From positions 1 to 44,671 of the forward strand of contig JAZOCR010000150.1 in the NCBI GenBank assembly GCA_045596605.1: a stretch of DNA of 44,671 nucleotides. Reading direction: 5' to 3'. Both the position numbers and the translations under genes were made by a program. Positions within the stretch are counted from its first letter, which is position 1; every line of letters begins with the position of its first letter. Shown piece by piece: positions 16,386 through 42,710 of this stretch. Under the pieces are notes generated by a model. The model was given only the letters and a program-made list of their open reading frames with translations. It was not told where the DNA came from and ran no database searches. Origin of the DNA: Eubacteriales bacterium. GTDB lineage: Bacteria; Bacillota; Clostridia; Oscillospirales; CAG-382.

Positions 16386-16395
16386 TATTTATGAA

Positions 16396-16975
16396 AGTCC
16401 GACACAGACAACTGCGTTGTCAGGTCGGGACTATGTACTTTTTCTTTCCTAAAATCAAAACAAAGCTTTCCTGGAGAAATTTTCATCAAACTTGAAACTT
16501 TATTTGGGATGTTACTTTTTCTTTCCAAAAAGAAAAAGTAACCAAAAAGAAGTTGCTAAGAGGCAAACCTCTTAGAACTCCTCTTGTCCCGCTTCGAGTT
16601 TATACAAATCTAAAACTTTAGAACACGAAAAAGCATTCGTTACTTTGAAATTTAACCACACTATCCAATACTTTCTACAAAGTTAATACTACACAAAGAT
16701 TACATAATTGCACATACTTTCAATGTATGTATGAGCAACATTGTAATCAATGTAAAACCTTAAAGCTAAACTCTGTTCTTGATAGTATGGTTCAACTCCA
16801 AGATTACGAGAACTCCTTGCGACAATTAAAGATGTACGCCCACTAAAGCTTTTACGTGACAAAAGGGAGTTTTCAGAGGACTTGTCCTCTGAACAACTTC
16901 TTTTGGTTACTTTTCTTTTTGTAAAGAAAAGTAACATATTTCCCGACCTGCCGACGAAGTCGGTTGTGTCGGGCT
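16396..16975. repeat. Long imperfect palindromic modular element, copy I (MITE/REPIN-like)
   Basis: Ends CCGACACA...TGTGTCGG. Inverted hairpin-bearing blocks (GTTACTTTTTCTTT..AAAGAAAAAGTAACCAAAAAGAAGTTG). Both arms are homologous to 29944-30590. Confidence 0.85.
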
Positions 16976-17074
16976 CTCGTCAATGCAAATATACACCAAA
17001 AAAGAAAACGGCATAAAAATCGCTCCCTTGGAAATTCATCTTCCAAAGGAGCATTAATTTTTTACAAGCGAAAA

Positions 17075-20902: not shown

Positions 20903-21006
20903 CGTGTTTCACCTTCTGATTTTAGCCTTGATTTATTATCTCATAATACTTATTCGTGATGGCGATTTAAAATTCGCAGAGTTAATTTTTATGCGTTCAT
21001 TTTTCT

Positions 21007-21317
21007 CGTCCCGAAGGGACATATCGCACCAATAGGTATATCGCATCCGCAAGGATATATCGCAAATTCCTAAAGGAATTTATATCGCTGAGTTCAAATG
21101 TCGCTTATTTAGTGATATACTCGCTAACGCTCGTGCGATATATTTTCACTATATTCAAATGCGATATAACTCCGCACAGCTTCGTTGCGATATGATATAA
21201 ATTCCTTTTTCCCGTCCCGAAGGGACATGTCGCACCAATAGGTATATCGCATCCGTAAGGATATATCGCAAATTCCTAAAGGAATTTATATCGCTGATTT
21301 CATCAAAGATGAAATCA
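21007..21317. repeat. ATATCGC-punctuated hairpin array with an 85-bp direct repeat
   Basis: 21007-21091 and 21213-21297 differ at 2 positions; each has 4 AT(A/G)TCGC heptamers separated by short palindromes. The middle block carries inverted G(C/T)GATAT copies. Confidence 0.9.
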
Positions 21318-25691: not shown

Positions 25692-25699
25692 AGCGAAAA

Positions 25700-25868
25700 A
25701 TATGGTAGAGGTGCACCTTGTAAAGAGTAGCCTTGGCACAACGGATACCGTAAATCCTTAGCCGAGGTGGAAGGGACGGGTGCCGAGGCGAAAGAGGACG
25801 GACCTTTCGACCGGTTTTCCGGATAATATCCGGCGGACTGTCGCATTGATGCGGAGAGCTATCGGCAA
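25700..25868 (+). ncRNA. Lysine riboswitch (L-box) aptamer
   Basis: GGTAGAGGTGC...AGTA...GAAGGG...GCCGA...CTGTC...GGAGAGCTATC landmarks; directly after the promoter and upstream of dapA-dapB-lysA. Confidence 0.9.
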
Positions 25869-25900
25869 TATTGGCGAATTTTCTTTTGTCGTCTTTTTGG

Positions 25901-25930
25901 CTCTTACCATTTTTGGGGTAAGGGTTTTTT
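25901..25930 (+). terminator. Terminator of the riboswitch expression platform
   Basis: CTCTTACC-loop-GGTAAGGG followed by a T run. Confidence 0.65.
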
Positions 25931-25966
25931 GTTTTTGAGGGGAAGTTTTGTACTTAAAAATGAAGG

Positions 25967-26718
25967 ATTTCTAAAGGGAAGTTTCATCAAATTTGGGGCT
26001 TTAATTTTACATTACTTTTTGTCACGAGCAACAAAAAGTAATCAAAAAATGCCCAAAGAAGTGAGGGGATACCCCTCCCTTCTTTACTACCCACCCACAC
26101 GCTCGGTTGTTTAATTAAAATTTGTTTTAACTGCCACGCATACACAGAGGGAAATTTTTTCGCAAAGCGAAAAAATCTTCCATAGGGCTGGGCTACTTCT
26201 ACTTGAATGGCTACATCAAACGACTTACAAAGATTGTATGTGTAATTATGTAATATTTGTGTGGTATTAATTTTGTAGTTAGTACTTGATAGTGTGGTTT
26301 AGTTTTAAATTTACGAAAGTATCTTGCGACAACCAAAGATGCACACTCTCTAAAGTTATTACGTGACAAAAGGGAGTTTTCAGAGGACTTGTCCTCTGAA
26401 CGTACCTTTTTGGTACTTTTTCTTTACGAGAAGAAAAAGTACATACCCCCGAACTGACAACGAAGTTGTCTGTGAGGGCTTTGAAAAAATCCGATACGCT
26501 TCGCAAGGGGCGACGAAAATTTCTTGTGAAATTTTCTTACGCTGAAGAATTTGCAAAGCAAATTCTTCCTATACCCAAAATCTTATCTATTCATTCAAGT
26601 TAACAAACCGATAAACTCCGCAGAAATTGCGAAGCAATTCGAGGAGTTTATCAAAATATAAAATTCTTTGCCAAGCTTTCTTATAAGAAAGCTTGCGGGG
26701 CGTGGGGCGGAGCCCCAC
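25967..26718. repeat. Composite cluster of palindromic repeat modules, including one arm of the long element (copy II, ~26236-26478)
   Basis: 26288-26478 aligns with 16781-16975 and ~30400-30580. Further hairpins at ~26012-26041, 26510-26572, 26610-26652, 26672-26695 and 26702-26718. Confidence 0.85.
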
Positions 26719-26747
26719 ATATAACATAATTCAAGGAGAAAAGAAAG

Positions 26748-27729: not shown

Positions 27730-28473
27730 ATGCTTAAAGTAATTGTTTACGGTGCCTGCGGAAGAATGGGCAAGGAGCTTGTAAGGCTCATTTCGGAAAG
27801 TGACGAATTTACCCTTGCGGCAGGCGTTGACAAGTTCGGCGGAGAATATGAAAAGCTTTCGGATTTTTCCGGCGATGCTGACGTTATAATCGACTTTTCC
27901 AATCACGTACTTACAGGCGAGCTTTGTGAGTACGCTGTAAAAAGAAAAATCCCGGTGGTTATTGCAACGACCGGACACACACCCGAGGAAAAGGCAGTTA
28001 TGACCGATGCGGCAAAGTCCGTGCCGGTGTTCCACAGCGCAAATATGTCGGTGGGAATTGCACTTCTTGCAAGCCTTGCAAAGCAGGCTGTAGCGGCACT
28101 GCCGAATGCCGACGTTGAAATCGTGGAAAAGCACCACAACAGAAAGCTTGATGCTCCAAGCGGTACGGCTCTGCTTCTTGCCGGTGAAATAAAATCCGTG
28201 AGAGCAGATGCAGAATATAAGCTCGGACGGGCAGGCAACGCAAAGCGTGAGAAAAACGAAATAGGTATCCATGCTGTGCGTGCGGGCAATATCGTAGGCG
28301 ACCACGAAATCATAATATGCACCGACACTCAGACGCTTACACTGCGCCATGAGGCACACGACAGAGCCCTGTTTGCGGAAGGTGCGCTTGCGGCTGCAAA
28401 GTATCTTGCAGAGCAAAGTGTTCCCGGGATGTATGATATGAAAACTATGCTAAAAGCGACGAAAAAGTCTTAA
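27730..28473 (+). CDS. dapB: 4-hydroxy-tetrahydrodipicolinate reductase
   Basis: GACGRMG, IDFS, ATTG, SANMS.G and EKHHNRKLDAPSGTA. Confidence 0.96.
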   Translation: MLKVIVYGACGRMGKELVRLISESDEFTLAAGVDKFGGEYEKLSDFSGDADVIIDFSNHVLTGELCEYAVKRKIPVVIATTGHTPEEKAVMTDAAKSVPVFHSANMSVGIALLASLAKQAVAALPNADVEIVEKHHNRKLDAPSGTALLLAGEIKSVRADAEYKLGRAGNAKREKNEIGIHAVRAGNIVGDHEIIICTDTQTLTLRHEAHDRALFAEGALAAAKYLAEQSVPGMYDMKTMLKATKKS

Positions 28474-28519
28474 GACTTTTTCTTACGCCCGAAGAATTTG
28501 CTACGCAAATTCTTCCTAT
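28456..28519 (+). repeat. Two-hairpin repeat module overlapping the dapB stop codon
   Basis: GCGACGAAAAAGTCTTAAGACTTTTTCTTACG..GAAGAATTTGC-TAC-GCAAATTCTTCCTAT; homologous to 26510-26572 and 42411-42472. Confidence 0.85.
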
Positions 28520-28562
28520 TTCCAAAACAGACTGCAATTTTATAAAAGTAAGGATATTAAAA

Positions 28563-29935: not shown

Positions 29936-29943
29936 AACGAAAG

Positions 29944-30630
29944 CCGACACAGCCGGCAAGCCGGCAGGTCGGGGGGATGTTACTTTTCTTTACAAAAAGA
30001 AAAGTAACCAAAAGAAGTTGCTAAGAGGTAAACCTCTTAGAACTCCCTTTTGCCCCGCTACAAGTTTAGTATAAATTTCGACTTTAGCACACGAAAAAAC
30101 ATTCGTAACCTTGGTGTTTAACCATACTATCAAGTATTAACTACAAAGTTAATACTACACAAAGATTACATAGTTGCTCATATTGTAGGGTGCGACGTCC
30201 TCGGCGCACCGGATAAGTTTTATCTTTGTTGCAACAGACAGAAAGAATTTTCGATAGAAAATTCTTTGAACATAAGAAAAATTCTTTTGCGTAAGAAAAA
30301 TGCTCCGCATTCTTCGTCGCCTTTTTCGTTGTCCCTCGGCGCACCGAAAAAAGCAATATTGTAATCAGTGTAAAGATTTAAAGTTGAACATAGTACTTTA
30401 TAGTATGGTTTAGTTTAAATTTACGAGAGTTTCTTGCGACAACAAAAGTTGCACACCAACTAAAGTTGTTACGTGCCAAAAGGGAGTTTTTAGAGGACTT
30501 GTCCTCTAAACAACTTCTTTTTGGTTACTTTTTCTTTTTGTAAAGAAAAAGTAACATACATCCCCCAACCTGCCGACGAAGTGGTTGATATAGGAAGAAT
30601 TTGCTTTGCAAATTCTTCAAACATAAGAAA
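29944..30630. repeat. Long imperfect palindromic modular element, copy III, with a central insertion
   Basis: The left arm matches 16508-16705 and the right arm matches 16741-16965. About 170 bp of extra sequence sits at the apex (30185-30355). Confidence 0.88.
30185..30211 (+). repeat. GTAG-type REP-like palindrome
   Basis: GTAG foot followed by GGTGCG-ACGTCCTCGG-CGCACC; partial direct copy at 30331-30346. Confidence 0.7.
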
Positions 30631-42369: not shown

Positions 42370-42710
42370 GTAGGGTTGGGCAGGAAAAATCATTTTTTAG
42401 GCAGCCCGACGACAACGAAAAAGTCTTAAGACTTTTTTTATGTTTGAAGAATTTGCAAGCAAATTCTTCCTGTACCAACCACTTCATCGTCAGGTCGGGG
42501 GAATGTATGTTACTTTTTCTTTGCAAAAAGAAAAAGTATTATTCCTATAAGGTTCTTGGTATATGAAGAATTTTCAAATAAAAATTCTTCGGACATAAGA
42601 AAACCGTAGGTTTTCGTTGTATTTTTCTTTCTGTAAAGAAAAAGTATTATTCTGATAATATTTTTGGCAAGGAGGAAATTTGCTCTGCACATCCTTCAAA
42701 ACATAAAAAA
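42370..42710. repeat. Composite cluster of palindromic repeat modules (copy IV, terminal modules only)
   Basis: About 42435-42539 is the near reverse complement of ~30526-30630. Further GAAGAATTT hairpins at ~42565 and ~42672; degenerate GTAG-footed stem at 42370-42410. Confidence 0.8.

Follow-up and report, generated by a model that had tools for sequence, protein, structure and literature searches.

A lineage-specific family of large, gene-less foldback repeats in a small Eubacteriales genome, probably selfish interspersed DNA

The 44,671-nucleotide stretch of DNA analyzed here (the window, contig C150 of a 1.93-Mb assembly of 186 contigs that is 93.7% complete) contains four members of a multicopy family of hairpin-rich elements. 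We read the family as a lineage-specific, gene-less, AT-rich foldback repeat, a form of selfish interspersed DNA of the same kind as MITEs, REPINs, and BIMEs, and we give this reading a probability of roughly two in three. That the elements are selfish repeat DNA and not RNA genes is probable to a similar degree. If the reading holds, about 0.6% of a small genome, and more in the unassembled gaps, consists of a single family of unusually large, hierarchical foldback repeats with no visible mobilizer.

RESULTS AND DISCUSSION

Copy number, range, and composition of the family

The preliminary description had proposed counting copies genome-wide and in relatives, and by this count the elements are numerous here and were not found in the 163 other genomes of the taxonomic family. 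A BLAST search with copy I against its own assembly returned 118 segments that merge into 49 loci on 24 contigs, with a total of 11.9 kb or 0.62% of the assembly. A covariance model built from the arms detected 45 arms here, 60 relatives yielding none, and a 356-nt core was recovered from 1 of 164 genomes of the taxonomic family, namely, its own, with six congeners among those searched. BLAST searches of phage and plasmid collections gave no family match, and pattern scans for the C' module gave no matches in genome_contigs and none in viral contigs. The viral contigs did hold two lone B-like hairpins, both in unrelated GC-rich contexts. The pattern of hairpin A was matched elsewhere by at least 117 stretches; these were set aside as chance matches because the inner stem was not complementary at any of the 80 loci kept and all 11 that were inspected look like ordinary coding DNA. 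Pieces of copy I are present in contigs from 20 public runs belonging to 11 studies (24 runs listed, none recorded as RNA), and those of the runs that carry a label are gut, fecal, or unspecified metagenomes.

The cores of the family have a GC content of 34.5%, compared with 41.7% for the genome. They measure 418 to 441 nt from B to B', and the six elements with both A ends span 498 to 601 nt. Copies in the standard orientation are 78 to 93% identical (median, 84%), the closest pair being 93% alike. The family is intergenic: of the 25 loci that reach 200 nt, 20 are clear of any open reading frame of at least 100 amino acids, and the other 5 overlap only mechanical ones. A contig end is no more than 60 nt away from 12 of the 49 loci, so the repeats are probably one cause of fragmented assemblies in their own species. 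We found no description of Oscillospiraceae repeats of such a build in the literature searched, which comprised sources other than subscription journals and supplements.

Anatomy of the element and its modules

From the end inward, each arm is made up of a block of ~9 nt, hairpin A, hairpin B with its mirror tract, a variable short linker, hairpin C, an inner arm of ~80 nt, and an 11-nt block that is nearly invariant among copies, beyond which lies a center of ~120 nt. The four related loci that had been reported in the window were all found to be real by BLAST and repeat comparison, and their features are collected in Table 1.

Table 1. Coordinates in the window of the four family loci and of the features of copy I
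Feature	Position	Strand	Evidence or context
Copy I, complete, with both terminal A hairpins	16390..16980	.	Folding z of -11 and -14; query of the genome BLAST (49 loci)
Conserved terminal block of ~9 nt before left hairpin A	16390-16398		Flank consensus
Left hairpin A; outer stem bulged and conserved, inner stem covarying freely	16399..16428	+	Covariation, flank consensus
Extra insert between A and B; half-B and small hairpin module	16430..16505	.	Alignments; direct repeats D2, D3
Hairpin B (16511-16542), then purine tract (16543-16552) mirroring the 3' arm (pyrimidine-purine-purine)	16511..16552	+	Run lengths, fold
Hairpin C, terminator-like outward on the - strand (A-tract, stem, T-tract)	16556..16575	-	Fold of -21.3 kcal/mol
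Central segment (16665-16781) between inverted 11-nt blocks (16654-16664, 16782-16792)	16654..16792	.	Opposite orientation in 2/13 copies
Hairpin C', terminator-like outward on the + strand	16872..16893	+	Fold of -23.6 kcal/mol including A and U tracts
Pyrimidine mirror tract (16897-16906) and hairpin B' (16906-16935)	16897..16935	+	Run lengths, fold
Right hairpin A, in inverted orientation to the left one	16943..16972	-	Genome A-hairpin census
Copy II, chimera; left half from a second hairpin-string family; right arm, C', B', and A from own family	~25960..26490	.	Between lysine riboswitch and dapA
Copy III, both arms, with 170-nt apex insert of other small palindromes (30183-30351) and degenerate right A	29937..30590	+	BLAST
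Copy IV, end modules only; degenerate A and single B (solo B, 42507-42538), outer-type flanks on both sides	42476..42538	.	BLAST

The extra insert of copy I is found in this copy alone among 13 full cores aligned, and its half-B and small hairpin module also occur beside other copies. An apex variant related to that of copy III but without the insert is present in copies on contigs C67 and C148. In copy II, the left half is part of a second family of hairpin strings, which is non-palindromic, has module B in common with the first, and is also found on contigs C122, C123, and C146.

The window holds several other repeats. A second B-like hairpin lies near copy IV at 42615-42646. Two small palindromic repeat families, D6 and D7, occur at 26513-26580, 28459-28527, 30594-30630, and 42415-42481, adjoining the large elements and in the dapB-lysA spacer, and a further module at ~26609-26655 recurs on contigs C146 and C156. 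A 101-nt direct repeat, D5 (20996-21096 and 21202-21302; 95% alike and 206 nt apart), lies in the gap between two minus-strand genes.

Hairpin A occurs in 26 copies in the genome and faces outward in all six elements that have two A ends. In these six copies the conserved terminal block of ~9 nt and an inverted A stand at both ends, so that terminal inverted repeats are present. The two A hairpins of one element usually differ in the inner stem, and some full cores have no A at one end; for these reasons A may be a separate module and not the true end of the element.

Hairpin B is a stem of 13 to 14 bp of A/T pairs with one pyrimidine arm and one purine arm, next to which, on the inner side, lies a tract that mirrors the adjacent arm. 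Among 42 perfect B hairpins in the genome, the mirror tract is present in 40, always on one side only, and the B of copy IV is one of the 2 that lack it. The T-run of the stem equals the A-run of the tract in all 40 (five bases in 26 and four in 14), although each of these two types may descend from a single ancestor, which would leave few independent events. The tracts are A/T-rich with a single G/C. Three genomes from other genera contain the same three-tract motif, in 19, 6, and 1 copies; the core is lacking there, and the motif often stands directly after a stop codon. The reversed control pattern was found 0 times. In one of the genomes examined, G009, the B motif occurs in 145-nt tandem arrays (loci L007, L011, and L012). 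According to the accessible part of the published account (PMC4666352), an intrastrand triplex needs pyrimidine, purine, and purine tracts in mirror arrangement on one strand. Module B with its tract has this arrangement and may form a triplex; a protein site present three times would also explain the agreement of the tracts. The agreement in run length over 40 copies, together with the presence of the motif in other genera, makes module B a candidate for testing intrastrand triplexes in bacteria.

Hairpins C and C' are each flanked by an A-tract and a T-tract and have the look of an intrinsic terminator when read outward on either strand.

Fold-back and the level at which structure is conserved

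Copy I folds back on itself far more strongly than expected, as had been noted from its letters. The predicted energy of the + strand was -190.4 kcal/mol (shuffled sequences, -113.6 ± 7.0; z = -11.0) and that of the - strand was -215.2 kcal/mol (z = -13.8), and none of 100 shuffled sequences folded as well. In reverse complement, the two arms of copy I are 67% identical over 439 nt by BLAST. The picture of a rod formed by the whole element stands as far as strong fold-back is concerned but not as a continuous structure, since ~50 nt within each arm barely match the opposite arm and the linkers between B and C are complementary across the arms in only 1 of 13 copies.

Compensatory changes in the stems, also part of the preliminary description, were confirmed for the local hairpins A, B, and C. 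The inner helix of hairpin A was paired in 96% of cells across 21 copies, with 4 of its 6 pairs changed on both sides; its covariation score was 0.223, compared with 0.116 ± 0.015 for shuffled alignments (0 of 500 as high) and 0.015 to 0.088 for slid controls. Hairpin B has double changes at several pairs, and two pairs are fully switched between C and C' (13 arms versus 13). Apart from hairpin C, the arm alignment contained no supported conserved structure. The long-range pairs between the arms were almost invariant and did not covary, and the few long-range double changes came from C154, which is highly diverged, and from C62_5510, in which the inner arms are swapped. Sites at which the arms agree were more conserved among copies than the others (0.927 versus 0.851; P = 3e-4), a difference that did not hold for the arm interiors (P = 0.17); the comparison is confounded by differences in rate between sites. 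Maintenance at the level of structure, as proposed earlier, thus applies to the local hairpins, which covary. The near invariance of the long-range pairs, the linkers complementary in 1 of 13 copies, and the ~50 unmatched nucleotides per arm argue that these short hairpins, rather than the 600-nt rod, are what is kept. Intrastrand templated correction of quasi-palindromes could yield the same pattern of pairing without selection.

Coding potential and the search for a mobilizer

The elements have no credible coding capacity, in agreement with what was first seen. Variable sites fall at codon positions 1, 2, and 3 in 39, 31, and 35 of 83 sites each, and single-base indels separate the copies. 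Several copies share a - strand frame free of stop codons, which shows no codon-position bias.

No partner for the family was found among the seven transposase families searched, and a search of Rfam over the elements likewise found no match at gathering scores, the best score at E values of up to 10 being 25 bits against a cutoff of 91. For PF01797 (Y1/RAYT), nine candidates were scored and none matched in this genome, with control genomes positive. PF13358, PF00665, PF01548, and PF00872 (the DDE_3, rve, IS110, and Mutator transposases) had no match in this genome either, and PF07282 (TnpB type) gave one subthreshold match inside a 730-amino-acid frame. The single match to PF01609 (DDE_Tnp_1) was rejected as a partner; it is a 39-residue fragment whose downstream DNA and end are unrelated to the element. 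Y1 transposases are present in 4 of 6 congeners; the one such gene inspected belongs to an IS200 element with unrelated hairpins and no ends in common with the family and was also rejected. Tyrosine recombinases gave seven matches. Neither an autonomous copy nor a candidate enzyme was found in the assembly, at its level of completeness, or among the relatives.

Two small DUF559 (Vsr-like) genes lie at C156:6270-6587 and C123:2028-2345 (genome G000, loci L026 and L027). They were considered as partners and discarded, as both are flanked by another, GC-rich hairpin repeat that is unrelated to the family. Elsewhere in the window, the Rfam search matched the HDV-like ribozyme of F. prausnitzii (RF02682; 53.6 bits against a cutoff of 44) at 237-306 on the + strand, immediately upstream of a DUF1919 gene, the first in a long run of polysaccharide synthesis genes.

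Evidence for insertion

The absence of an obvious target-site duplication was borne out: among the six copies with both ends, none was shared by three or more at offsets of 0 to 15 and lengths of 2 to 9. Given that the copies appear old (78 to 93% alike), a former duplication may have decayed. The hairpins themselves were rejected as long target duplications, since the A units are inverted and usually different and the B units of an element are mostly of different types.

The clearest sign of insertion comes from copy II. A lysine riboswitch (25698-25869; 77 bits in the Rfam search) is separated from dapA by ~800 nt that are filled by copy II and smaller palindromes, compared with 8 to 138 nt in four congeners; a fifth congener (G002, L021, 787-1479) has ~690 nt of other sequence in this gap. 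The order dapA-dapB-lysA is conserved in the congeners, and gene order after lysA breaks in those searched. The spacer between dapA and dapB is ~900 nt in G002 and G006, 25 to 265 nt in two other congeners, and 97 nt here.

For copy I, the junctions with flanking DNA were recovered in contigs of public runs (both junctions in X6, the left one in X2, the right one in X1, and a short right-end piece in X7), and in these four runs no contig skips the element. An empty-site allele of the same species was not recovered, the best YmdB match in the metagenomes being only 54% identical, and ymdB and ychF are not neighbors in the five congeners searched. Insertion is thus documented only across species and at a single site, between the riboswitch and dapA.

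Two parts of the original interpretation fare differently in the light of these results. The label of a nonautonomous element fits a family that is multicopy, noncoding, intergenic, and gene-less and that matches none of the insertion sequence ends compared. Mobilization in trans, for which neither a transposase partner, an empty-site allele, nor a target duplication was found, is retained below as a conditional step.

Arm polarity, mosaicism, and how the elements may have spread

The asymmetry between the arms had been described as inherited, and it is, since like arms of copies I and III match better than unlike ones: by BLAST, the left and right arms of copy III are 85% and 82% identical to the left and right arms of copy I, respectively, and 73% identical crosswise. 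Inherited mismatches of this sort need no selection on structure, as any family derived from one imperfect palindrome would show them.

Against a reference of the majority type, polarity is kept throughout in 9 of 13 full copies. In 2 others (C4_12916 and C4_2194) the center is inverted, matching the reference at 0.75 and 0.85 in inverted orientation versus 0.58 and 0.62 in forward orientation, with outer arms of the standard type; C62_5510 has its inner arms swapped, and C154 is too diverged for polarity to be called. The linkers fall into four left and five right classes, which occur in nine combinations among the 13 copies, and the end modules assort freely, the two B units of one copy being mostly of different types. 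Two sites, one of them copy IV, have a solo B with outer-type flanks on both sides, the product expected of a deletion between B and B'. Other copies are truncated, chimeric, or invaded by other repeats.

On the reading of the family as selfish interspersed DNA, it would have spread once its own species had diverged from the congeners sampled, and the enzyme moving it in trans would recognize hairpins in DNA instead of a linear sequence at the ends. The likely handle for such an enzyme would be the outward A hairpin, in which a bulged base is conserved and the inner stem is free to vary, much as REP sequences serve RAYT and subterminal hairpins serve IS200/IS605. Insertion would have left no target duplication, and the family would now be old or inactive and reshaped by recombination between arms and between copies. 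The age is suggested by the divergence of the copies, and even the closest two show no sign of recent movement. A hairpin-guided, duplication-free mode of insertion is suggested by the retention of structure rather than sequence in A, the lack of a target duplication, and the lack of a DDE transposase; we put it forward tentatively, as a mode that is possible but less likely than not.

The main rival to this reading is that there was no dedicated transposase and that cores were spread and lost by homologous recombination or replication template switching between scattered A and B modules acting as portable homology arms, with the hairpins kept perfect by intrastrand templated correction and not by selection. 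We consider it unlikely. Much of the mosaicism would be expected under it: modules are common to different families, as in the chimeric copy II; end modules assort independently; the center is inverted in two copies and the inner arms are swapped in one; solo-B sites have outer flanks on both sides; module B is found in other genera without the core; and neither a target duplication nor a transposase family was found. However, the first arrival of A and B at dozens of sites is left unexplained, the ~800-nt insertion between the riboswitch and dapA would need modules already in place where the congeners show none, and recombination after classical transposition would yield the same mosaics. A broader version of the idea, which we rate as less likely still, is that Oscillospiraceae spread noncoding DNA in a way not yet described, without a classical transposase, in which hairpin A and the triplex-capable hairpin B serve as portable cassettes for recognition or homology. 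Cores would then be copied, inverted, swapped, and deleted via single-stranded hairpin intermediates, at the replication fork or by a hairpin-specific nuclease, and the foldback elements would be one product of this process.

Transcription and gene context

Copy I is flanked by convergent genes and begins 11 nt past the stop codon of ymdB, and the interval holds no other terminator. Transcription that runs into the element from either side is predicted to encounter a hairpin in terminator orientation, with its A and U tracts, on the far arm. As part of the reading of the family as selfish DNA, such termination would be a likely side effect of insertion. It may instead be that the host keeps the elements as two-way transcription stops or insulators, a role that would be layered on a selfish origin and is compatible with it. 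The position of copy I and the predicted far-arm terminators fit this role, as does the tendency of hairpin A to stand just beyond a T-run (7 of 26) rather than beyond an A-run (3 of 26), which is a trend only. On the other hand, ychF has its own terminator before copy I, and copy II is placed between a riboswitch and the essential genes dapA-dapB-lysA, where a stop would be harmful. On these model-based predictions we regard the role as distinctly unlikely.

The terminator-like C' hairpin of copy II (26379-26400) falls between the lysine riboswitch and dapA (25698-26747), and the control of dapA-dapB-lysA by the riboswitch may, as judged from this arrangement, be weakened or lost here. Copy II thus offers a naturally occurring case in which to test the effect of such an insert on control by a riboswitch.

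Transcription units inside the element would likewise be compatible with terminator-like hairpins that point outward on both arms. We nevertheless give very little credence to the notion that the element is a structured RNA gene, either one long rod-like RNA or two divergent RNAs of ~115 nt running from near the inner blocks to C and C': the outward A-tract, stem, and U-tract of C and C', their two fully compensated pair differences, the strong folding scores, and the nearly invariant inner blocks speak for it, but the search of Rfam was empty, the region has one promoter-like site where shuffled sequences would give 1.7, supported structure in the arm alignment is confined to hairpin C, long-range pairs do not covary, linkers rarely match across the arms, and copies with the center in either orientation, truncated, chimeric, or invaded by other repeats are all found.

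Comparison with known repeat families

BIMEs are composite repeats of separable modules that vary between copies, and the family resembles them in its modular, mosaic habit. In REPINs the spacer is only tens of bases, whereas that between the A units here is ~440 to 540 nt and holds further modules. Within the accessible text on REPINs (PMC3116915, PMC3337134), the likenesses are an inverted palindromic doublet at the ends (here, A), a single long hairpin, the occurrence of single units as well, compensatory stems, and the lack of a target duplication. The family differs from REPINs also in that the assembly has no Y1/RAYT gene and in that the A units of one element usually differ.

At the level of a module, B with its tract is like the BoxC, PIT, and TM_ECO triplex motifs, as far as the available portion of PMC4666352 describes them, in being intergenic and repeated and in its three-tract mirror arrangement. 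The likeness is limited to the B module of ~45 nt and does not extend to the rest of the element, the tracts here are A/T-rich, and TM_ECO is likened by description and not by sequence.

The BOX, RUP, and SPRITE repeats of Streptococcus pneumoniae, as presented in the accessible sections of PMC3049150, also consist of separable modules that vary in number and type and insert into or beside one another. SPRITE, like one module here, resembles a rho-independent terminator, and all three kinds have proliferated in one species while being rare or missing in its relatives. BOX itself is a linear boxA-boxB(n)-boxC array, mostly under 200 bp (67 to 637 bp), with reported target duplications according to the same text. 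The elements described here are instead two mirror-image strings around an invertible center, and they are likened to BOX by description and not by sequence.

With MITEs such as Correia, ERIC, and QMITE, going by the part of PMC10969869 that is accessible, the family has in common that it is gene-less, AT-rich, intergenic, and multicopy, with inverted ends, a very stable predicted stem-loop, and no transposase of its own. MITEs are typically under 500 bp with terminal inverted repeats of 4 to 30 bp in that account, and the cores here are below that length while elements with both A ends span it (498 to 601 nt), with inverted symmetry that runs through the whole element as nested hairpins; flanking direct repeats and a related insertion sequence with matching ends were not found. 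The suggestion that these loci represent an undescribed system goes too far: the family is new and unusual in size and build, but its kind, that of interspersed hairpin repeats, is a known one.
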